Below are positions 22,333-31,374 of a stretch of 59,761 nt of DNA, piece by piece (within the stretch, counting starts at the first letter, position 1; each line of letters starts with the position of its first letter). A model generated the notes under the pieces. That model had not been told where the DNA came from. It worked only from the letters and a program-made list of their open reading frames with translations, and did not search any database. Position numbers and translations under genes: made by a program. Source of the stretch: Solirubrobacterales bacterium (GTDB lineage Bacteria > Actinomycetota > Thermoleophilia > Solirubrobacterales > 70-9); assembly GCA_035698885.1 (NCBI GenBank), contig DASSBJ010000124.1, forward strand, positions 1 through 59,761, written 5' to 3'.

Positions 22333-22365
22333 GGATATCCTCACCTGCCGATGGAGCTTTTCTGC

Positions 22366-23113
22366 ATGAGCAAAGGCAGCGGTCCGCCTATCGTCCTGCT
22401 CCACGGGACCGGCGGAAGCTGGGAATCCTGGGGGTCTGTGATCGGGCTTTTGGCACCTCACAGGCGCGTCGCCCTCGTTGCCGGACAAAACGCCTCCTGC
22501 TATCCGCACGCTGGCCGACGCCGTTGCGGCGTGGATGGCGGCAAGCGGATTGGAGCGCCCCCATGTGGCGGGCAACTCCCTCGGCGGAGCGGTCGCACTG
22601 GAGCTGGCCAAGGGAGCGCAGATCGCCAGTGCGACGGCGCTTTCGCCAATCGGTTTCAGCAATCGTTGGGAATTCGCCTACGGCGCCGCGTCGCTGAGGG
22701 CTACTCGCGCCGGGGCACGCCTGACGGGGCCAATCGCGCCGCTGCTTTTCGGCAATCGGCTCGGCCGCACGGCACTACTTTGGCAGGCGATGGCTCGGCC
22801 GTGGCGCATGTCGGGTGAGGCAGCGATCAGCGGCTCACGCGCGATGGCCGCAGCACCGGCTTTCATGGCGACGGTCAAGGCGGCAAGCGAGTACCGATTC
22901 GCCGGCCCGCTCGGCGATGTCACTGTGACGATCGGGTGGGGAACGCGGGATCGTCTGCTGTTCTGGCGCCAGGCAAAGCGGGCGCAAGAGACTCTGCCCG
23001 AGGCTAGCTTTGTGCCTCTCCCCGGTTGCGGGCATGTCCCGATGACCGACGATCCAGAGCTGATCGCCGCTGTTCTGCTGAATGGCAGCGAAACCGCGAG
23101 GGGTGCGGCTTGA
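22366..23113 (+). pseudogene. Alpha/beta hydrolase, reading frame broken near 22468-22485
   Basis: The N-terminal GPPIVLLHGTGGSWESW...HRRV is in one frame. DKTPPAIRTLADAV...HVAGNSLGGAVALELA...GCGHVPM is in the +1 frame. The usual DLPGxGxS stretch between them is missing. Confidence 0.65.
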
Positions 23114-23147: not shown

Positions 23148-23376
23148 ATGTTCTACAGCCGCTTGATCGACGTCCTGCTCGAATGGCTTGAGACCGGCCG
23201 CTTTCCCCGCGAGGAACTGCGCGTGCGACCTGTCATTACGGTGGCCTTCACCGTCGTAATTCTCGTCTTGGTGATTGCCCTGGCCCGTCATGCCTCCGCC
23301 TCCCAGCGGTGAGATCACCTCCGAGGAGTACCGCGAGCGCCGCGAGACGCTGACCGATCGCCAGCCGGATCAGTAG
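23148..23376 (+). pseudogene. Small membrane protein with SHOCT-like tail, split by a 1-nt frame change at ~23307-23312
   Basis: A 54-codon ORF with one helix ends at TGA 23310-23312. The +1 frame continues GEITSEEYRERRETLTDRQPDQ (SHOCT-like), ending at 23376. Confidence 0.45.
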
Positions 23377-23738
23377 GTAAAGGCCATCGCCCCCTCGCCG
23401 GCGAACTCCATCAGCGGCGTCGCTCCCTTGAGTTCGGCGCTCTCGATCAGGTCGCCCTCGTCGAGGTCGCGCTCGTTGAAGCAGATCGGGCAAACGTAGA
23501 AGCGGCCGCCTTTCTCGACGAACTGCGCATGCACCCGCTCCACCGGCGGTTCCATGCCGACGCGGATGCGATCCGCGTAGCCCGACAGCGCCAGGCGAAC
23601 GCCGTCGACCGTCAGCCACATCACCACGTCCTTGCCCTGGTCGAGGGCGGCAACTGCCGTCAGGTAGGCGACGACGACCCGATCGGGGTCCTCCTCGCCG
23701 TGCGTGCAGCCGACTATCACTCGCTCTCCGTTTGCCAT
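23370..23738 (-). CDS. DsrE/DsrF-like sulfur-relay family protein
   Basis: GGAGGAG lies 6 nt upstream of the ATG at 23738. VIVGCTHGEEDPDRV and FYVCPICFNERDL motifs. Confidence 0.75.
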   Translation of the reverse strand: MANGERVIVGCTHGEEDPDRVVVAYLTAVAALDQGKDVVMWLTVDGVRLALSGYADRIRVGMEPPVERVHAQFVEKGGRFYVCPICFNERDLDEGDLIESAELKGATPLMEFAGEGAMAFTY

Positions 23739-23767
23739 CGACATCTCCTCCCGGTTCGTTTTTGTGT

Positions 23768-24262
23768 TCAGAGGGGCCTCGGCTCGCCACCGCGGCGTCC
23801 GTGCAGGAGGCCGTAGATCAACGAGGGCAGGCACCAGTTCGTAGTCATGACCGTCGCCGCCACCACCAGCAGGGGGACGGCGAGCACCCAGGCGAGCGCC
23901 GAGGCGTCCACCGCAAAGGCAAGGGCGATCGCCGCGATCCATGGCGTCGCCAGCTGACAGGCGAAGCGGCGGGGCGGTGGGCTTGGCGGCAGGCTCGGGC
24001 CGCCCAGCAACGGTCGCAACGCGTCGTAGAGATAGTCGAAGGGATGCTTCGCGGTGACGAACCCGCCGAGCAGGGCGGTGAGGGCCATCGCCAACAGCAA
24101 AGCCGGGCTGGCGAGCACGGTGCCGAGCGCGATTCCGGCGAAGCAGAGAAGGGGCGAGAAGCGCAGGCCGAGCCAGAGGCTCCTTCGCTCCGAGTCGCTG
24201 AGGGCGCCGTACCCCTGCATGGTGAGGCAGCTCCGCGACCAGGCTCCGAGGCGCTCGATCAT
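23768..24262 (-). CDS. DUF4395-like membrane protein
   Basis: ATGA overlap with the methyltransferase stop. Four helices. The RRFACQL motif matches my recollection of DUF4395. Confidence 0.65.
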   Translation of the reverse strand: MIERLGAWSRSCLTMQGYGALSDSERRSLWLGLRFSPLLCFAGIALGTVLASPALLLAMALTALLGGFVTAKHPFDYLYDALRPLLGGPSLPPSPPPRRFACQLATPWIAAIALAFAVDASALAWVLAVPLLVVAATVMTTNWCLPSLIYGLLHGRRGGEPRPL

Positions 24263-25047
24263 CCCGATCCCTCCTCCGTGCGGCGAGCCAGCAAGGAGAT
24301 GCTGGTGACGCCGTATTTCTGCGTGGCGTTGTCGGCGCGATCGGAGACGAAGCGGTAGTCGTTCTCGCGGACCTCGCCGATCTCGAAGCCGGCGCGCTCG
24401 ATCGTCTCCAGGTAGCGGTCGCGCTGCATCGCGCCGCCGATGCATGCAGCCCACAGCGAGGCGTCGCAGGTGACGCCCTCGGGCAAGGGCTTGGCGCTGA
24501 CGATGTCGGCGATCGCCAGTCGACCACCGGGCCGCAGCGCCGCCGCGGCGGCGGCGAAGACCGCGGCCTTGTCGGGCGAGAGGTTGATAACGCCGTTGGA
24601 GATCACGCAGTCGACCGAGCCTGCCTTGACGGGCGGCTTCTCGATCATGCCCCGGCGGAACTCTGCGTTGCCGATCCCCGCCTCCTCCGCGAGGCGCGTC
24701 GCCTTGGCGAGCTGCTCGTCGGTCATGTCGACGCCGATCACCCGCCCCGCCTGCCCGGCGGCGAGCGCCGCGAGTAGCGAGTCGGTGCCCGAGCCGCTGC
24801 CAAGGTCGAGCACGACGTCGCCCGCCTCGATCGCCGCCAGGTCGAGGAAGTAGCCGACCCCGGCGAAGGAGTCGATCGCCGCGGCGGGGATGCGATCGAG
24901 CTCGGCCGGCGGGTAGCCGAGGTGCTCGGCGAGCGGGCGACCCGTCTCGAAGTGGAACTCGCGCTCGGGATGGAGCGCGACCTCCTCATACATGTCCTTG
25001 ACCCGCTTGGTCAGATCGGCGGTGTCTAGCTGCGCGGTCGTTGCCAT
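24259..25047 (-). CDS. ArsM-like SAM-dependent methyltransferase lacking two canonical As(III)-binding cysteines
   Basis: VLDLGSGSGTD (motif I), VDCVISNGVINLSPDK and LWAACIGGA. ArsM normally has GCG and SNCVINL at the aligned places. Confidence 0.85.
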   Translation of the reverse strand: MATTAQLDTADLTKRVKDMYEEVALHPEREFHFETGRPLAEHLGYPPAELDRIPAAAIDSFAGVGYFLDLAAIEAGDVVLDLGSGSGTDSLLAALAAGQAGRVIGVDMTDEQLAKATRLAEEAGIGNAEFRRGMIEKPPVKAGSVDCVISNGVINLSPDKAAVFAAAAAALRPGGRLAIADIVSAKPLPEGVTCDASLWAACIGGAMQRDRYLETIERAGFEIGEVRENDYRFVSDRADNATQKYGVTSISLLARRTEEGSG

Positions 25048-25064
25048 CGTCGGTTCTCTCCTCC

Positions 25065-25721
25065 TCAGTGGGCTTGAATGGGCTTGCCGGCCAGACGCCA
25101 CTCGGGCCAGCCGTCCTCCAGTCGCCGGGCCTTGCGCCCGGTGTCTTTCAAGCGGCGAACCGCCTCGTGCGCGTAGGCGCAGAACGGGCCGCGACAGTAG
25201 GCGACGATCTCCTGGTCGGGCGGAAGCTCGGCGAGCCGGCGCTCGAGCTCGGGAAGTGGGATCGAGCGCGCTCCCTCGATATGGCCGGCGGCAAACTCCT
25301 CCTCGGGCCGCACGTCGACCAAGACGACGTCGCCCTTCGTAAGTCGCTCCAGCAGATCCTCGCGCCCGATCGTCTCGACGTCATCGCCAAGGTAGTCGCG
25401 TGCGGCTCGCTCGACCTCGCCGAGGTGGGCTACCGAGGCATCACGCAGGGCAAGCCAAAGGCGAAGTGCGTCCTCGCCGGCCATCGCGTACACGACGCGC
25501 GTGCCTTCACGGGTGCGGGTGACTATCCCGGCCGCGTGAAGCGCCTGCAGGTGCTGGGAGGCGTTTGCCGTCGACTGTCCGCTCGCGCGTGCCAGCTCCT
25601 CGACGCTGCGCGGCGCCTGCGCGAGGAGGTCGAGCAACTCGAGCCGGCGCGGGCTGGCAAACGCCTTGCCCATCAGCGCAATCGCTTCGAACAGGGCCTG
25701 CTTTGCGTCGCTGGAAGCCAT
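25065..25721 (-). CDS. ArsR-family HTH regulator fused to a rhodanese domain
   Basis: The N-terminal part has ASPRRLELLDLLA...SVEELA...NASQHLQALHAAGIV. The C-terminal part has VLVDVRPEEEFAAGHIEGARSIP...IVAYCRGPFCAYA (rhodanese active-site loop). Confidence 0.88.
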   Translation of the reverse strand: MASSDAKQALFEAIALMGKAFASPRRLELLDLLAQAPRSVEELARASGQSTANASQHLQALHAAGIVTRTREGTRVVYAMAGEDALRLWLALRDASVAHLGEVERAARDYLGDDVETIGREDLLERLTKGDVVLVDVRPEEEFAAGHIEGARSIPLPELERRLAELPPDQEIVAYCRGPFCAYAHEAVRRLKDTGRKARRLEDGWPEWRLAGKPIQAH

Positions 25722-25727
25722 GTTTTG

Positions 25728-25760
25728 CTATTCAATAGAACGCTTGATAGCTTGTCAAGC
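25728..25760. promoter_or_regulatory. Two 11-bp palindromes in a divergent promoter region (CTATTCAATAG and GCTTGTCAAGC)
   Basis: 25728-25738 and 25750-25760, each with perfect 5-bp arms around a central base. AT-rich 69-bp intergenic region between the regulator (start 25721) and the MBL gene (start 25791). Confidence 0.45.
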
Positions 25761-25790
25761 CTTACCGGCGATTCGGATCTGGAGGCTCAG

Positions 25791-26555
25791 ATGTTCTTCC
25801 GGCAGCTCCTCAACGACGAGACGGCATGCGCCTCGTACCTCCTCGGCTGTGCCAGTCAGGCCCAGCTCGCCGTGGTCGACCCCCACGTTGACCTGGTCGA
25901 CGACTACATCGCCCTGGCCAAGGCCCAGAGCATCCCGATCGTCGCCGTCCTCGACACCCACCTGCAGGCCGATCACGTCTCCGGGCTGCCCGCGCTGGTC
26001 GAGCGCACCGGTGCCCGCGCCTACCTGCCGGCCGGCGCCGGAGTCGAGTTCGACCACCACCCCCTTGCCGACGGAGAGGTCGTCAAGCTCGGCAACACCG
26101 AGATCGAGGCGATCGCGACGCCGGGGCACGCCCTCGCCCACCACGCCTACCTCGTCACCGACCGCCGCCGCGCCGAGCAGCCCTGGCTGGTGCTGACCGG
26201 CGACGCGCTGCTGGTCGGGGACGCCGGGCGACCGGACCTGCACGCGGGTGGAGAGCACAGCGTCGAGGAGATGGCACGGACGCTTTACCGGTCGCTGACC
26301 GAGCGGCTGCTGGCGCTGCCCGATCACCTGGTGCTCTACCCCTCGCACTACTCGGGGTCGGTGTGCGGGCGCAGTCTTTCGGCCAACCCGATCTCCAGCG
26401 TCGGCTTCGAGCGCCGCCACAACACCGCCCTGCGGTTCTCCTCCGAGGAGGAGTTCGTCGCCGCCCTGACGGAGGACATCCCGCCGGCGCCGGAGCAGCA
26501 GGCGGCGATCGTCGCCGCCAACCGCTCCGGCCGAGTGCTCCTCGCCAGCGGCTGA
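25791..26555 (+). CDS. MBL-fold metallo-hydrolase, persulfide dioxygenase (ETHE1/Blh)-like
   Basis: GGAGG 5 nt upstream of the ATG. LDTHLQADHVSG (HxHxDH-type motif), ATPGHALAH and LLVGDAGRPDL. Confidence 0.85.
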   Translation: MFFRQLLNDETACASYLLGCASQAQLAVVDPHVDLVDDYIALAKAQSIPIVAVLDTHLQADHVSGLPALVERTGARAYLPAGAGVEFDHHPLADGEVVKLGNTEIEAIATPGHALAHHAYLVTDRRRAEQPWLVLTGDALLVGDAGRPDLHAGGEHSVEEMARTLYRSLTERLLALPDHLVLYPSHYSGSVCGRSLSANPISSVGFERRHNTALRFSSEEEFVAALTEDIPPAPEQQAAIVAANRSGRVLLASG

Positions 26556-26562
26556 GACGGCG

Positions 26563-27888
26563 ATGAACGCTCGGCGCGTCGAGCTCGGGCTGCGCGAGAA
26601 CCTGCCGCAGTTCTCGCTGCTGGTCGCGGTCAACGCCTTCGTCGGCGCGATGGTCGGCCTGGAGCGCTCGACGCTGCCGCTGATCGGGCGCGATGACTTC
26701 CACCTCGCCTCCAACGTCGCGGTGCTGTCGTTCATCGTCGCCTTCGGGCTGGTCAAGGCGCTGACCAACCTCGGCGCCGGTGCGCTGGCGCAGCGCGTCG
26801 GCCGGCGGCGACTGCTGATCGCCGGCTGGGCGGTGGCGCTGCCGGTGCCGTTGTTGATCGCCCTCGCGCCGAGCTGGGGATGGATCGTCGCCGCCAACGT
26901 TCTGCTCGGCGTCAACCAGGGCCTCGCCTGGTCGATGACGGTCGTGATGAAGATCGACCTCGTCGGCCCCAGGCGCCGCGGCCTGGCCCTGGGGCTGAAC
27001 GAGGCCGCCGGCTACGGTGGCGTCGCGCTCGCCGCCGGCCTCAGCGGCTGGCTCGCGACCCAGTTCGCCGCCCGCGACGTGGTCGTCGTCCTCGGGGCCG
27101 CGATCGCCGTGACGGCGTTCCTGGTCTCGGTGCTGTTCGTCCGCGACACCGGCGCCCACGTCGCCTTGGAGCAGGAGCGCCACCACCCCGACGGCGACGG
27201 CTCGCCGCCGCGACTGCGCGCGGCGTTCGCGCAGGCCACCTACCGCGTGCCGGCGCTGCGCTCCTGCTCGCAGGCCGGCCTCGTCAACAACCTCAACGAC
27301 GGCCTCGCCTGGGGCCTGGTGCCGCTGTTCCTCGCCGCCCACGGCGCCGGGATCGGCCAGATCGGGGTCGTCGCGGCCGTCTACCCGGGGGTGTGGAGCG
27401 TCGCCCAGATCGGCGCCGGCCACTGGTCGGACACGATCGGGCGCAAGCCGCTGATCGTCGCCGGAATGCTGGTCCAGGCCGCGGCCCTGGCGCTGCTGGC
27501 GCTGAGCGGCGGCGGCTTTGCCCTCGCCGTCGGGGCCGCCACGCTGCTGGGTCTCGGGACCGCGCTTGTCTACCCGACGCTGATCGCCGCGATGTCAGAC
27601 GCGGTCTCCCCCGTCGCCCGCGCCCCGGTGGTCGGCGTCTATCGCTTCTGGCGAGACATGGGCTACGCCGTCGGGGCACTGATCGCGGGCATCTCCTCAG
27701 ACACGCTCGGCTACGGCGGCGCGGTCGGGCTCGTGGCGGGGCTGACCGCCGCCTCGGGGCTGTGGGTGCTGCGCGACATGCCCAGCGCGCGAGGCCCCGG
27801 CCACCGCGAGATTGCGGGTTCCTCGCAGCCAGAGGGCGGTATTCCCCCGATGACCCCGGCGCCGGCCGATGGTGTGATTCGGCGATGA
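26563..27888 (+). CDS. MFS transporter
   Basis: 12 hydrophobic segments. GRRRLLIAG and DTIGRKPLIVAG loop motifs. Confidence 0.85.
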   Translation: MNARRVELGLRENLPQFSLLVAVNAFVGAMVGLERSTLPLIGRDDFHLASNVAVLSFIVAFGLVKALTNLGAGALAQRVGRRRLLIAGWAVALPVPLLIALAPSWGWIVAANVLLGVNQGLAWSMTVVMKIDLVGPRRRGLALGLNEAAGYGGVALAAGLSGWLATQFAARDVVVVLGAAIAVTAFLVSVLFVRDTGAHVALEQERHHPDGDGSPPRLRAAFAQATYRVPALRSCSQAGLVNNLNDGLAWGLVPLFLAAHGAGIGQIGVVAAVYPGVWSVAQIGAGHWSDTIGRKPLIVAGMLVQAAALALLALSGGGFALAVGAATLLGLGTALVYPTLIAAMSDAVSPVARAPVVGVYRFWRDMGYAVGALIAGISSDTLGYGGAVGLVAGLTAASGLWVLRDMPSARGPGHREIAGSSQPEGGIPPMTPAPADGVIRR

Positions 27889-28232
27889 ACGTCCTGGTGA
27901 TCGTCAACGACCAGCCCTACGGCAGCGAGCGCCCCTACAACGCCCTGCGCCTCGCCACGGCGCTGAGCAAGCGCGACGGTGTCGTGCTGCGCGTCTTCCT
28001 CTTCGGCGACGCGGTGGCCTGCGCGGTCGCCGGACAGCATCCGCCCGAGGGCTACTACCACCTCGATCGTATGCTCAAGCCGCTGCTCCGCCGCGGCGAG
28101 GTTGCCTGCTGCGGCACCTGCATGGACGCACGCGGCCTCGAGGAGGCAAAGCTGATCGACGGCGCTCGCCGCGCGACCCTCGAGGCGCTGACCGACTGGA
28201 CGTTGTGGGCAGAGAGGACGCTGACGTTTTGA
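27885..28232 (+). CDS. DsrE family protein
   Basis: ATGA overlap. MNVLVIVNDQPYGSERPYNALRLA and VACCGTCMDARGL motifs. Confidence 0.8.
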   Translation: MNVLVIVNDQPYGSERPYNALRLATALSKRDGVVLRVFLFGDAVACAVAGQHPPEGYYHLDRMLKPLLRRGEVACCGTCMDARGLEEAKLIDGARRATLEALTDWTLWAERTLTF

Positions 28233-28279
28233 GCTGGCAGGTAACTCATTCGCTGCTTCTCTTCGCCGACACCTGGGGA

Positions 28280-28507
28280 ATGCACGACGGCGACGTCGGC
28301 TCCGGCTGGATGATCGCGATGATGCTCGGCATGGTCCTCTTCTGGGGGCTCGTCGTCGTCGGAGTCGTCTGGCTGCTGCGCGAGGCGATTGGCCGCGGCC
28401 GTCACACCGCAGATGCCGACCCCCTCGCGATCCTCGATCGCCGACTTGCCGAAGGGAACATCTCAGTCGAGGAGTACGAGCAGCGCAAGAAGACCCTCAC
28501 CGGCTAG
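28280..28507 (+). CDS. SHOCT domain small membrane protein
   Basis: MHDGDVGSGWMIAMMLGMVLFWGLVVVGVVW helix followed by LDRRLAEGNISVEEYEQRKKTL. Confidence 0.75.
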   Translation: MHDGDVGSGWMIAMMLGMVLFWGLVVVGVVWLLREAIGRGRHTADADPLAILDRRLAEGNISVEEYEQRKKTLTG

Positions 28508-28900
28508 GCCGTCGGCTCGCAGCAGCCTTCGCAGCAATCGTCGTCGCAGCACTCGCCAGCGAAGCCGGCGCCGTCGAGCGGTGAGCTGACGCAACAGCCC
28601 TCACCACGCCATGCGTCTGTCCCCTCGCTCACCGCGACGGCGGCGATCAGGAGACCGACTGCTGGATCGAGCCACCAGGCGCCGAGCAGCGCGTTGCCGA
28701 GCAGGCCGACCAAGAGGGCGCCGGCCAGGTAGGCGCAGAGCATGTTCTGGCGGCCCTCGCCCTTCGTCGCTGCCGAGCCGAGCTGGTCGGCGAGCCGTTC
28801 CTTGGCGATCCCGAGCATCGGCATGAAGACCACCGAGCCGACCGACGAGCGCTCCAGTCACCCCGCCGAGTAGGGCGTAGGCGATCCAGCGAGGGCGGAC
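28504..28900 (-). pseudogene. C-terminal remnant of a small cation-transporter-like membrane protein with Cys-rich tail
   Basis: MPMLGIAKERL...NMLCAYLAGALLVGLLGNALLGAWWLDPAVGLLIAAVAVSEG matches the last two helices of that family from memory. An upstream helix (WIAYALLGGVTGALVG) is in another frame. No room remains for the N-terminal half before the cobT stop at 28956. Confidence 0.5.
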
Positions 28901-28955: not shown

Positions 28956-30469
28956 TTAAGTCTCCCCCTCCCGCTCCGACACCGCCGCCTGATCGAACGT
29001 AGCCATCTCACGGAGCACGCCTGCCGCAGTCTGGACGACGGGAATTGCCAGACAGCCTCCCGTTCCCTCGCCAAGCCGCAAGGAGAAGTCCAGCACCGGC
29101 ACGAGGCCAAGGTGCTCCAAGACAGCTGCCGCTCCCGGCTCGGTGGAGCGGTGGCCTGCAATGCACCGCGCCGCGACGCCCGGCGCCATCGCCTCGGCAA
29201 CGAGCAGCGCAGCCGCCGTTATGACGCCGTCGACGACGACTGGAACTCCCCCTGCGACGCCGCCGACGATGAAGCCCGCAAGGGCGGCGATCTCGAGGCC
29301 GCCCACCTCCGAGAGGATGGAGACTGGATCGAACCATCCGCGCGTTCGGCTGGCGGCGCCCTCGACGATGCTCGTCTTGCGAGTCAGCATCTCTCGTCGA
29401 TGCCCGTCCCCCGTCCGGTCACGGCCGCCCCGTCCTTCCCGGTGAAGGCGGCGATCAGCGCCGCCGACGGCGTCGTGTTGCCGATCCCCATGTCGCCGGT
29501 GACAAGAAGCCGGTTCCCTTGTGCCAGGAGCTCGGCGGCAATCGAGGCGCCTGCGTCCAGCGCCGCCCGCGCCTCGGCGACACTCATCGCCGGGCCGATC
29601 GAGAGGTCCGCGGTGCCGGGGCGTACGTTGCGCTGAATTACCCCGTCGAGGCCGGACACGTCGGCGGCGACCCCCACGTCGACGATGTGGACGCTCGCCC
29701 CGACCTGGCGCGCGATCACGTTGATCGCGGCGCCGCCCGCGACGAAGTTGGCGACCATTTGGGCCGTCACCTCCTGCGGCCAGGGCGTGACGCCCGAGGC
29801 GACGACCCCGTGGTCGCCCGCGAACACGGCGACTGCGGCGGGCTCGGGCCGCGGCGGTGGGCACTCGCCGGCGATCGCCGCGAGCTGGACGCCGAGCTCC
29901 TCCAAGCGCCCGAGAGACCCGGCCGGCTTGGTGAGACGGTCGTGGTGCGCCAGCGCCGCGCTTGCGGCCTCCTCGTCCAGGGGGGAAACGCGCCGGCATG
30001 CCTCGGCGAAGGGGCCCGAGCGGGCATGGGCGAAGCGCTCGATCGCCTCGGCCACGCCCCGGTCGACGGCGACGAACTCGACTCCGGCCGCGATGGCGGC
30101 GCCCCTATCCACCGATGCGTTGCCGACGTAGACCGACCTCTCCGGCGCTGCCCCAAGCCGGCGCAGCGCCTCGTTCAAGGACGCCGGGTCGGGCTTCTCC
30201 ACGCCGACGTCGATCGATGTCACGATCACCTCGAGCAGCCCGTCCAGGCCCACGGGGTCGAGCAACACTCGCACCTCGGCCTCGCGCATCGCGGCCGTGT
30301 CCGTGACCGCGGCGATGCGGTGGTGCTCCGCCAGCACGCGCAACGTCTCGACCGCTCCCGGGCGAAGCTCCGCCTTCAGCTTGGCGACGGGTGTGCCGGG
30401 CGGCGCCTCCTCGACTAGCGTGCCACCTACGTCGAACAGGAATGCGTCGATGCCGTCAAATCGATTCAT
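28956..30469 (-). pseudogene. cobT: HAD-like hydrolase fused to nicotinate-nucleotide:DMB phosphoribosyltransferase; frameshift near 29386-29397
   Basis: N-terminal AFLFDVGGTL HAD motif I variant. The CobT core is LTKPAGSLGRLEEL...TGDMGIGNTTPSAAL...TGRGTGID, then TGA at 29384. The rest (EMLTRKTSIVEGA...LRLGEGTGG) continues in the -1 frame to 28956. Confidence 0.8.
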
Positions 30470-31374
30470 GGGAATAACCTCCGAGTGCGTTTGCGAGCTT
30501 TTCGAGACCGTTTTGAATCCGGGACGGCGATACGCGCGCCGTGCGGAATGCCGAAAGAAGTCGTGTCGCGCACAAGGACGCCGCGGGGCACCAGCCAGTC
30601 GCGCAGGCCAGGGGCTTCGCGGACGAGAACGAAGTTGGCGTCCGAGGGGTCGGCACGAAGCCCGTGCGCGGCGAGCAGGTCGACAAATTCCGCGCGCAGC
30701 GTCGCCAGCGACTGTGCCCACCCGCGCAGGTCGGCGAGCGCCAGCAGCTCGGGGACGAGCGCGCAGGCCAGGGCGTTCACCGACCAGCGCGGCTTGCGCT
30801 GCCGCAGCCGGCACGCCAGCTCGGGGTCGGCGCAGACGACGTAGCCGATCCGCAGCCCCGGACAGGCGTAGAGCTTGGTGAGCGACCCGATCGTCACCTC
30901 GTCCCCTCGGGTCCAGCGTCCCGTGGCCAGCTGGTAGAAGGCCTCGTCCCAGACCGCCGCCTTCTCCCCAGCGCCAGCGAGGTGGCCGCTTGGGTTGTGC
31001 GGGTTGGAGCGCCAGCGTGGGGCATCGGCCCGCAGCTCGTGGAGGTGGCGGGCGTAGAGCGAGAAGTCCGGCTCATCGACCCGCCCGATCGGGAGCAGCG
31101 CCGCGACTAGGGCGATCGCCTCGGCGCCGCCGTTGGTCAACACGACCCGCTCGGCGTCGGCGCCCAGCGCCTCAGCCAGCGCCGCCGTCGCGACCGCCTC
31201 GTCGGGGTAGCGGCGCAGCTCATCGAGGGACTTCGCGGCCAGCCGCCCAACGTCGGGCGCAACGGGATTGAGGCTTTCCGAGAGGTCGAGCATCTTCTCG
31301 GGTGGGACGCCGAGGCCTGCCGCGACGGCGGCTCCGTCTCCCCCGTGGGGGCCGACCGGCAGTGCGCCGCTCAT
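30466..31374 (-). CDS. cobD: L-threonine-O-3-phosphate decarboxylase (class I/II aminotransferase fold)
   Basis: The ATG at 31374 overlaps the restored cbiB stop (ATGA). NPHNPSG and SLTKLYACPGLRIGY (PLP lysine) motifs. Confidence 0.8.
   Translation of the reverse strand: MSGALPVGPHGGDGAAVAAGLGVPPEKMLDLSESLNPVAPDVGRLAAKSLDELRRYPDEAVATAALAEALGADAERVVLTNGGAEAIALVAALLPIGRVDEPDFSLYARHLHELRADAPRWRSNPHNPSGHLAGAGEKAAVWDEAFYQLATGRWTRGDEVTIGSLTKLYACPGLRIGYVVCADPELACRLRQRKPRWSVNALACALVPELLALADLRGWAQSLATLRAEFVDLLAAHGLRADPSDANFVLVREAPGLRDWLVPRGVLVRDTTSFGIPHGARIAVPDSKRSRKARKRTRRLFP

Follow-up and report, generated by a model that had tools for sequence, protein, structure and literature searches.

A rhodanese-fused ArsR repressor heads a candidate reactive-sulfur stress regulon in Solirubrobacterales

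Introduction

Bacterial persulfide sensors of established mechanism fall into three classes, CstR, the BigR/SqrR group and FisR, all of which place their cysteines within or beside the core for DNA binding or regulation. BigR, SqrR, YgaV and HlyU are ArsR/SmtB winged-helix proteins that use a palindromic operator and control a dioxygenase-type protein of the metallo-beta-lactamase (MBL) fold together with a membrane exporter; their presumed chemistry is the oxidation, by sulfane sulfur, of a cysteine pair placed in helix 2 and helix 5 of the DNA-binding domain. In the cst operon of Staphylococcus aureus (CstR, CstA, CstB, SQR, TauE), a repressor of the CsoR family is combined with persulfide oxidation, sulfur carriers and the exporter TauE, and the dioxygenase CstB has a Cys-Gly loop and rhodanese domains of its own. 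Here we analysed a stretch of 59,761 nucleotides from a Solirubrobacterales bacterium (GenBank assembly GCA_035698885.1, contig DASSBJ010000124.1), called the window below at its full length, in which eight genes in two divergent operons (23370-28507) include one for an ArsR repressor with a fused rhodanese domain. On balance, we consider this locus to be a regulon for reactive-sulfur (persulfide or sulfane-sulfur) stress under the rhodanese-fused repressor.

One operon encodes the regulator, a methyltransferase resembling the arsenite methyltransferase ArsM, a DUF4395 membrane protein and a divergent DsrE-like protein; the other encodes an MBL protein, a major facilitator superfamily (MFS) transporter, a YchN-like DsrE-family protein and a SHOCT-domain protein. 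With the BigR/SqrR/YgaV/HlyU group the locus shares the winged helix, a putative palindromic operator, a dioxygenase-type MBL protein and membrane exporter under the regulator, and the presumed chemistry, whereas its own cysteine pair lies in the rhodanese loop. With the cst operon it shares the CstB-type dioxygenase with its Cys-Gly loop and the combination of repressor, persulfide oxidation, sulfur carriers and exporter; it differs in the family of the repressor, in a dioxygenase without rhodanese domains and in an MFS transporter in the place of TauE, and it lacks SQR but has the methyltransferase and DUF4395. Most likely, the logic matches that of cst and bigR/sqrR; the differences are a sensor module of a new type, the truncation of the CstB-type dioxygenase and the added genes for a methyltransferase, DUF4395 and a YchN-like protein. 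As such, the fusion is already known, being common and visible in any domain database.

The winged helix-turn-helix fragment (residues 1-100) of Mycobacterium bovis Mb0332 (2kko, 3gw2) is 47-48% identical to the DNA-binding domain of the window regulator, and this structure of an ArsR-rhodanese N-terminal domain reportedly dates from 2009. We take Mb0332 to be the same protein as Rv0324 of M. tuberculosis, and Rv0324 and Rv1674c presumably have the full two-domain architecture; Rv0324 is said to have been linked to bedaquiline tolerance in network studies. The searchable literature on Mb0332, Rv0324 and Rv1674c yielded structural-genomics, network and expression studies only, and no ligand, operator or sensing mechanism was found in it. 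The rv1674c gene has been described as encoding a rhodanese-domain protein in the rv1674c-rv1672c operon and is induced by a nitric oxide (NO) donor alongside antioxidant genes (PMC11439070). On plasmids of Lactobacillaceae, the module arsR-trxA-trxB-frnE-gshR (PMC8190607) contains a regulator that is 34-37% identical to that of the window over its full length, rhodanese included; its enzymes are those of reductive thiol-redox chemistry, in contrast to the dioxygenase and transporter found here, and the accessible portion of that paper does not mention the rhodanese domain. A Thioalkalivibrio arsenite paper and an Arthrobacter plasmid paper deal with other gene sets. For ArsR-rhodanese proteins as a whole, no report of a signal, operator or mechanism was found in the searchable literature.

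The regulator carries a conserved cysteine pair in a rhodanese active-site loop

The regulator matched HTH_5 (E 4e-11, 43 bits, cut-off 22) and Rhodanese PF00581 (E 1e-19, 71 bits), and its score of 67.8 bits against NF033788 (cut-off 55) placed it in the ArsR/SmtB family; against the BigR equivalog NF040642 it reached 35.8 bits, with a cut-off of 155. An AlphaFold2 model built from a 61-sequence alignment had a predicted local distance difference test score (pLDDT) of 97.1 and a predicted template modelling score (pTM) of 0.90, and such a pTM suggests that the two domains are held in a fixed arrangement, joined by helices 83-99 and 101-111. In a structure search with this model, the ArsR domain matched 2kko, 3gw2, NolR and SmtB, and the PDB gave no full-length match, all matches being to single domains (best TMq 0.45).

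The preliminary description, made from the sequence of the locus, had pointed to a CRGPFC loop, and we confirmed that the loop C176-R-G-P-F-C181 holds the only two cysteines of the regulator, residues 1-175 being Cys-free. A search of 1.84 billion representative proteins was conducted and the best 150 matches were examined, of which 101 were full-length two-domain relatives (205-245 aa). Among these 101, C176 was conserved in 97% and C181 in 91%, within the motif Y-C-R-G-P-[FY]-C; no other column of the alignment was Cys-rich, in the DNA-binding domain or elsewhere. C176 aligned with the catalytic cysteine of 3tp9, 8a56 and 6pfz, as expected of a catalytic rhodanese, and the whole domain was nearest to modules of persulfide-handling enzymes, namely CstB-like 3tp9 and the coenzyme A-persulfide reductases 8a56 and 3nta. 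C181 falls on the last of the six residues of the active-site loop, where 3tp9, 8a56 and 3nta have Arg, Ser or Thr. The sensor module had been described as unlike those of characterised persulfide sensors, and this view held, as the BigR/SqrR cysteine pair is absent and a conserved pair lies in the rhodanese loop instead.

The fusion is not confined to this locus. The regulator family comprised 433 clusters at 50% identity (E<1e-30), homologues were located on 189 plasmids, of which Lactobacillaceae account for more than 100, and the N-terminal domain of Mb0332 is already solved. This very large and generically annotated family spans soil Actinomycetota, Chloroflexota and Proteobacteria as well as many plasmids of food lactobacilli.

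The regulator, the MBL gene and the MFS gene form a conserved core

One scan of species-representative genomes gave 80 loci, which were searched with the eight proteins of the window, and neighbours were counted in the 45 loci in which each flank of the regulator spans 4.5 kb or more. The MBL and MFS genes were both neighbours of the regulator in 26 of the 45; a methyltransferase was near it in 17, any DsrE-like protein in 12, DUF4395 in seven and SHOCT in three. Gene-neighbourhood conservation, which had been suggested as a check, was therefore observed, with the regulator syntenic with a persulfide-dioxygenase-type enzyme, a transporter, DsrE-like proteins and a methyltransferase. Since the same genes recur beside the regulator in many genomes, the arrangement is not due to chance. 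The methyltransferase and DsrE-like proteins, which had been described as additions, turned out to be variable rather than defining, being accessories, like DUF4395 and SHOCT, to a conserved core of regulator, MBL and MFS.

This core was found in Actinomycetota, in Chloroflexota, on plasmid pRHL3 of Rhodococcus jostii and on a Deinococcus plasmid, in both divergent and co-directional arrangements; on the two plasmids its public annotation is wholly generic. MFS homologues in distant taxa were 52-58% identical and adjoined the MBL gene and the regulator, and such identity over such distances indicates a single, specific group of orthologues. The strongest grounds for assigning the accessory genes to the core came from two loci (L026, L046) in which one co-directional array with short gaps comprises the genes for the regulator, the MBL and MFS proteins, the methyltransferase and a DsrE-like protein. 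Moreover, a homologue of the divergent DsrE-like protein lies directly beside a methyltransferase homologue in seven loci (L004, L007, L008, L010, L026, L046 and L064), which suggests a carrier-enzyme pair, and the YchN-like DsrE gene adjoins the MFS gene or the regulator.

In loci without an MBL gene, the regulator stands beside methyltransferases, pyridine-nucleotide disulfide oxidoreductases, DsrE and TusA, and in Proteobacteria of this kind a fatty-acid-hydroxylase-family protein is among its neighbours. In the two Lactobacillaceae plasmids that were inspected, the regulator type heads an operon of thioredoxins, a thioredoxin reductase, a DsbA-like protein and a flavin adenine dinucleotide (FAD) oxidoreductase.

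An open reading frame (ORF) of about 290 aa was observed divergent from the regulator in Beta- and Gammaproteobacteria, including Thioalkalivibrio. Six scanned regulator-adjacent ORFs matched the fatty-acid hydroxylase (di-iron membrane) family. The scan gave their number and not their identities; by size and position, we take them to be the six 290-aa ORFs listed in Table 1. Such a hydroxylase is an unexpected partner for a sulfur regulator.

The region between the operons contains a putative operator

Alignment of the 100 bp that precede the regulator gene in 82 loci showed an inverted repeat, TATTCAA-N8-TTGAATA, common to Actinomycetota, Chloroflexota, Acidobacteriota, Gemmatimonadota and Beta- and Gammaproteobacteria. 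With at most two mismatches, this box was present in 38 of the 82 loci within the 200 bp that precede the regulator, as against five sites in 934 kb elsewhere in the same loci. When the whole window was scanned, the intergenic site and one chance-level match at 30499 were identified, and the intergenic site is thus the sole credible, if putative, operator copy in the window. The block that contains it hardly varies between the loci of Solirubrobacterales and stops a few bases short of the regulator ATG. An autoregulated divergent pair would call for just such an arrangement, one operator in a common control region. A sigma-70 consensus scan of the control region found no promoter; possible promoter hexamers can be proposed by eye in the 69-bp region. 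Two terminator-like matches were at chance level, one of them being the palindrome of the operator region.

The MBL protein resembles the dioxygenase domain of CstB

The MBL protein had been labelled ETHE1/Blh-like; the MBL fold stands, but the nearest relatives are CstB-type dioxygenase domains and neither ETHE1 nor Blh. Its PDB matches were 3tp9 (E 1.5e-45), 3r2u of S. aureus (E 1e-34), PDO 4ysb (E 3e-27) and ETHE1 4chl (E 1.5e-18), and it scored 45.9 bits against the Blh equivalog NF040641, with a cut-off of 625. Alignment to 4ysb, 3r2u and 3tp9 showed that the 2-His-1-Asp triad is kept (H57 in THLQADH, H113 in TPGH, D138 in TGD), and the Cys-Gly loop is likewise kept, GSVC192G193R aligning with GSPCGK of CstB. 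At the second His of HxHxDH, where CstB, 3tp9 and other dioxygenases have His, Gln is present in the window protein (residue 59) and in nearly all of its Solirubrobacterales orthologues. No C-terminal rhodanese was found in the window protein, which ends at residue 254; related long forms have about 205 extra residues. Judged by these motifs, the protein is a CstB-type persulfide dioxygenase domain without the rhodanese domains of CstB.

In most other, non-Solirubrobacterales Actinomycetota, the MBL partner has about 450 aa, the 205 or so additional residues forming a C-terminal extension, and its loop reads GSFCSAP instead of GSxCG. For CstB itself, the Cys-Gly loop is reported to become self-S-sulfonated and then to pass the group to the enzyme's own rhodanese domain (2026 preprint, PMC12934615). 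We infer that the MFS protein exports the oxidised sulfur product.

The methyltransferase belongs to an ArsM-like Cys/Sec clade

The methyltransferase scored 101 bits against Methyltransf_31 and matched CrArsM 5evj (E 2.6e-23) and CmArsM 4fr0 (E 2.2e-22), aligning through the N-terminal region and the S-adenosylmethionine (SAM) fold. It shares with these two enzymes the fold, the SAM-binding motif, the N-terminal region and a cysteine (C202) equivalent to ArsM C224. It differs in that ArsM C72 and C174 are replaced by Val and Gly, and in a genomic context of sulfur rather than ars genes. The replacements were present in all 27 regulator-linked homologues, in which SFAGVG and SNGV are invariant, and the score against the arsenite-methyltransferase model NF008823 was 216 bits, below the cut-off of 263. 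The ArsM-like label first given to the protein therefore holds as to a SAM fold related to ArsM, but two of the three As(III)-binding cysteines are absent; by its cysteines as by its score, the window enzyme is not an ArsM.

Position 202 is Cys in 15 of the 27 linked homologues and an in-frame TGA in the other 12. A hairpin 12-31 nt after the TGA, with two covarying pairs, is as expected of a bacterial selenocysteine insertion sequence (SECIS) element, and these 12 methyltransferases are probably selenoproteins. The selenocysteine (Sec) forms mostly have Cys in an N-L-C motif, where the window enzyme has Ser. The Cys/Sec exchange marks residue 202 as chemically essential. A UxxG arsenite-methyltransferase selenoprotein family has been catalogued (PMC13188914).

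The sulfide and methanethiol S-methyltransferases MddA, MddH, MddM1 and MddM2 likewise depend on SAM and are common among Actinomycetota. H2S and methanethiol induce the MddM genes, for which a role in the detoxification of these two compounds has been proposed (PMC12904073, PMC11445057). The idea that the locus methylates thiols thus has a precedent of the same kind of role, but by other types of enzyme: by their descriptions, MddM1 and MddM2 are UbiG-/UbiE-type proteins of about 205 aa and MddA is a membrane enzyme, in contrast to the 262-aa ArsM-like protein of the window. The MddM1/MddM2 papers mention neither ArsR nor rhodanese. That the window methyltransferase acts on sulfane sulfur or thiols is a guess.

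Two DsrE-like proteins, DUF4395 and SHOCT accompany the core in the window

Both DsrE-like proteins have the DsrE fold and a conserved Cys motif before Arg, which assigns them to the family. The YchN-like protein scored 74 bits against DsrE and matched Escherichia coli YchN 1jx7 (E 7e-24); its motif CCGTCMDARG agrees with the C-G-[TS]-C-x-D-A-R conserved in homologues. The divergent protein scored 41 bits, matched 3mc3 (E 1.5e-4), carries a V-C-P-I-C motif (VCPICFNER) and has the ribosome-binding site GGAGGAG ahead of its gene. With scores far below the TusD and DsrE2 equivalog cut-offs, the two proteins fall outside these subfamilies.

The DUF4395 protein scored 57.9 bits against PF14340 (cut-off 24.5) and contains the conserved motifs HPFD and T-N-W-C144-L-P-S, with one conserved cysteine. 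Its AlphaFold2 model was all-helical (pLDDT 87.8) and found no fold match in the PDB (best E = 1); in the searched literature, the family received passing mentions only, with no function given. The SHOCT protein is weakly associated with the locus.

A proposed mechanism and its alternatives

We favour, with moderate confidence, the reading that the locus is a reactive-sulfur stress regulon. In the proposed mechanism, a dimeric repressor would occupy the operator and block both promoters. Upon a rise in low-molecular-weight persulfides or polysulfides, C176 would be persulfidated, as in any rhodanese, and C181 would attack the C176 persulfide to give an intraloop di- or trisulfide. Helices 83-111, which are rigidly packed, would relay this change to the winged helix, whereupon the repressor would come off the DNA. 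The CstB-type dioxygenase would then oxidise the persulfide sulfur and the MFS protein would export the oxyanion product, with the two DsrE-like proteins serving as sulfane-sulfur carriers. The ArsM-like methyltransferase, paired with the divergent DsrE-like protein, and DUF4395 would provide an oxygen-independent disposal of sulfide, persulfide or selenide, possibly by methylation at or near Cys/Sec202. The signal may also be broader, comprising thiol or persulfide stress generally, as is suggested by the thioredoxin operons and by the NO induction of rv1674c.

Several points weigh against this reading. The operator copy in the window is degenerate, with three mismatches, as one half-site appears 1 nt short. 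In the long MBL partners, the metal-binding Asp is replaced by Gly (T-G-G-S versus S/T-G-D), which makes the dioxygenase label uncertain for much of the family. We know of no MFS transporter established as a sulfite or thiosulfate exporter. CstB turnover requires its own rhodanese domain (PMC12934615), and the window enzyme has none. The substrate given to the methyltransferase in the scheme is a guess, and no expression or biochemical data on members of the regulator family were found in the searchable literature. Finally, a general thiol-oxidation signal would account equally well for the thioredoxin operons and for the induction of rv1674c by NO. Under this last alternative, the regulator would sense disulfide, peroxide or nitrosative stress through a plain disulfide or S-nitrosation of C176/C181 and would command a broad thiol-redox repair regulon, which we consider unlikely, although it is the main rival. 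In its favour, a C-x4-C pair could plausibly act as a simple redox switch, the regulator type is directly followed on Lactobacillaceae plasmids by genes for thioredoxin, thioredoxin reductase, DsbA and an FAD oxidoreductase, rv1674c is induced together with antioxidant genes, and the arsR-thioredoxin operon is interpreted as an oxidative-stress module in the accessible portion of PMC8190607. However, thioredoxin systems also reduce persulfides, and for this reason the thioredoxin operon fails to separate thiol oxidation from persulfides as the signal. The commonest partner of the regulator is a persulfide-dioxygenase-type enzyme, with the sulfur carriers DsrE and TusA also present, and the cysteine presumed to sense the signal is the catalytic one in a sulfurtransferase fold, the nearest relatives of which act on persulfides; both observations argue against the alternative.

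It is quite improbable that the locus is a resistance unit for metalloids (As, Sb, Se or Te), in which the loop cysteines would bind the metalloid, the ArsM-like enzyme would methylate it and the MFS protein would export it. The regulator does belong to the ArsR family and the best family match of the methyltransferase is arsenite methyltransferase; selenocysteine at residue 202 in 12 of the 27 linked homologues would suit soft-metalloid or selenium chemistry, rhodanese folds include the Acr2-type arsenate reductases, and MFS arsenical exporters exist. Yet C174 and C224 of ArsM are the minimum for methylation of As(III) or MAs(III), and the whole methyltransferase clade lacks the equivalents of C72 and C174; the window enzyme also scores below the family cut-off. 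The regulator has no known As(III) or metal sites, its ArsR domain being Cys-free, none of arsB, acr3, arsC and arsA is present in the locus, and the methyltransferase is absent from 28 of the 45 loci, whereas MBL with MFS is the commonest neighbourhood. We therefore give arsenic resistance low weight, because the ArsM cysteines are missing, the ars genes are absent and the methyltransferase is a minority accessory. That the two operons are mere neighbours of no common function, with the regulator controlling itself or distant genes, is scarcely credible: the accessory genes do differ among genomes and the window operator is imperfect, but the adjacency of regulator, MBL and MFS is kept across phyla and plasmids in divergent and co-directional forms, and the operator lies in the shared control region.

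Within the reactive-sulfur reading, we also considered that the rhodanese of the repressor, besides sensing, acts as the catalytic partner that the rhodanese-less dioxygenase lacks, and perhaps plays this part for the DsrE/methyltransferase pair as well, a reading that we regard as very improbable. Here, C176 in its persulfide form would take the S-sulfonate from C192 of the dioxygenase and thiosulfate would be released. If so, the repressor would read the flux of detoxification rather than free persulfide, and a transcription factor would double as a subunit of the pathway.

If the locus is indeed a reactive-sulfur regulon, persulfide sensing would have a further solution, in which a repressor makes use of a sulfurtransferase's catalytic loop, and a function would be gained for a very large, generically annotated family, probably including M. 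tuberculosis Rv0324 and Rv1674c. The locus also gives handles on the ArsM-like Cys/Sec methyltransferase clade, the DUF4395 membrane family and the YchN-like proteins. Should the methyltransferase yield volatile methylated sulfur or selenium, the abundant Solirubrobacterales of soil would be a source of such compounds.

Locus layout and flanking genes

ORF listing, start-site inspection and Pfam and NCBIfam searches confirmed the eight genes at the coordinates and with the domains first assigned to them (Table 1). Their third-position GC content was 0.82-0.94, in a window of high GC content (63-74%). The nearest relatives of the window proteins were from metagenome bins of Solirubrobacterales (Actinomycetota); the homologues listed were all at least 74% identical and gave taxonomy and generic names only. 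ATGA coupling, which had been ascribed to the locus, applies to the methyltransferase/DUF4395 and MFS/DsrE junctions only. The remaining junctions have short gaps of 7-47 nt: the MBL and MFS genes lie 7 nt apart, the regulator and methyltransferase genes 17 nt, the DUF4395 gene and the DsrE gene next to it 23 nt, and the other DsrE gene and SHOCT 47 nt.

Table 1. Positions of the genes and control elements of the window locus, and of related features in other loci (locus handles precede the positions within them).
Feature	Position	Strand	Remarks
Divergent DsrE-like protein, 124 aa	23370-23744	minus	DsrE E 1.9e-10
DUF4395 membrane protein, 164 aa	23768-24262	minus	PF14340 E 1.7e-15
ArsM-like SAM methyltransferase, 262 aa	24259-25047	minus	Methyltransf_31 E 5e-29
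Regulator (REG), ArsR/SmtB winged-helix repressor with C-terminal rhodanese, 218 aa	25065-25721	minus	HTH_5, Rhodanese, NF033788
Divergent intergenic region, 69 bp	25722-25790		Between the operons; expected to hold both promoters
Probable operator TATTCAATAGAACGCTTGATAG	25729-25750		Between the divergent starts, directly upstream of regulator ATG; degenerate TATTCAA-N8-TTGAATA
MBL-fold protein, putative CstB-type dioxygenase domain, 254 aa	25791-26555	plus	PDB matches, motifs
MFS transporter, 441 aa	26563-27888	plus	MFS_1 E 2e-41
YchN-like DsrE-family protein, 115 aa	27885-28232	plus	DsrE E 1.4e-20
Small membrane-anchored SHOCT-domain protein, 75 aa	28280-28507	plus	SHOCT 27.8 bits, cut-off 27
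Long MBL partners, examples within the L019-L082 group	L028 6215-6931; L063 6187-6900; L083 3546-4910		
Methyltransferase homologues with in-frame TGA	L010, L027, L030, L032, L039, L041, L046, L047, L064, L071, L078, L082		
ORFs of about 290 aa divergent from the regulator	L038 6065-6946; L052 1343-2194; L059 6032-6898; L066 5566-6432; L069 6035-6901; L079 6061-6912		
Thioredoxin operons	L085 4483-9525; L086 4477-8998		Weissella plasmid (L085); Lactiplantibacillus plasmid (L086)

The locus is flanked by a split alpha/beta hydrolase, a zinc-ribbon membrane protein and cobalamin-pathway genes, and the boundaries 23370-28507 hold because these flanking genes are unrelated. On the minus strand, a CobT-type phosphoribosyltransferase (DBI_PRT) is split across two overlapping frames (28956-30814): the ORF 29384-30814 contains a HAD domain and DBI_PRT profile positions 2-193, and the ORF 28956-29999 contains positions 188-329. 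This split reflects either a frameshift or an assembly indel in the 29384-29999 overlap, probably near 29,400 by the profile positions. Similarly, the alpha/beta hydrolase lies in two frames on the plus strand (22351-23113), with an N-terminal part containing LLHGTGGS in the ORF 22351-22818 and Abhydrolase_6 in the ORF 22478-23113. A second apparent frameshift so nearby suggests assembly indel errors or pseudogenes. Finally, a 109-aa membrane ORF on the minus strand (28504-28833), which had no Pfam match, converges on the SHOCT gene with a 4-nt overlap with its stop, and its highly Cys-rich tail, GEGCCVSSPLDGAGFAGECCDDDCCEGCCEPTA, suggests that the protein may bind metal.

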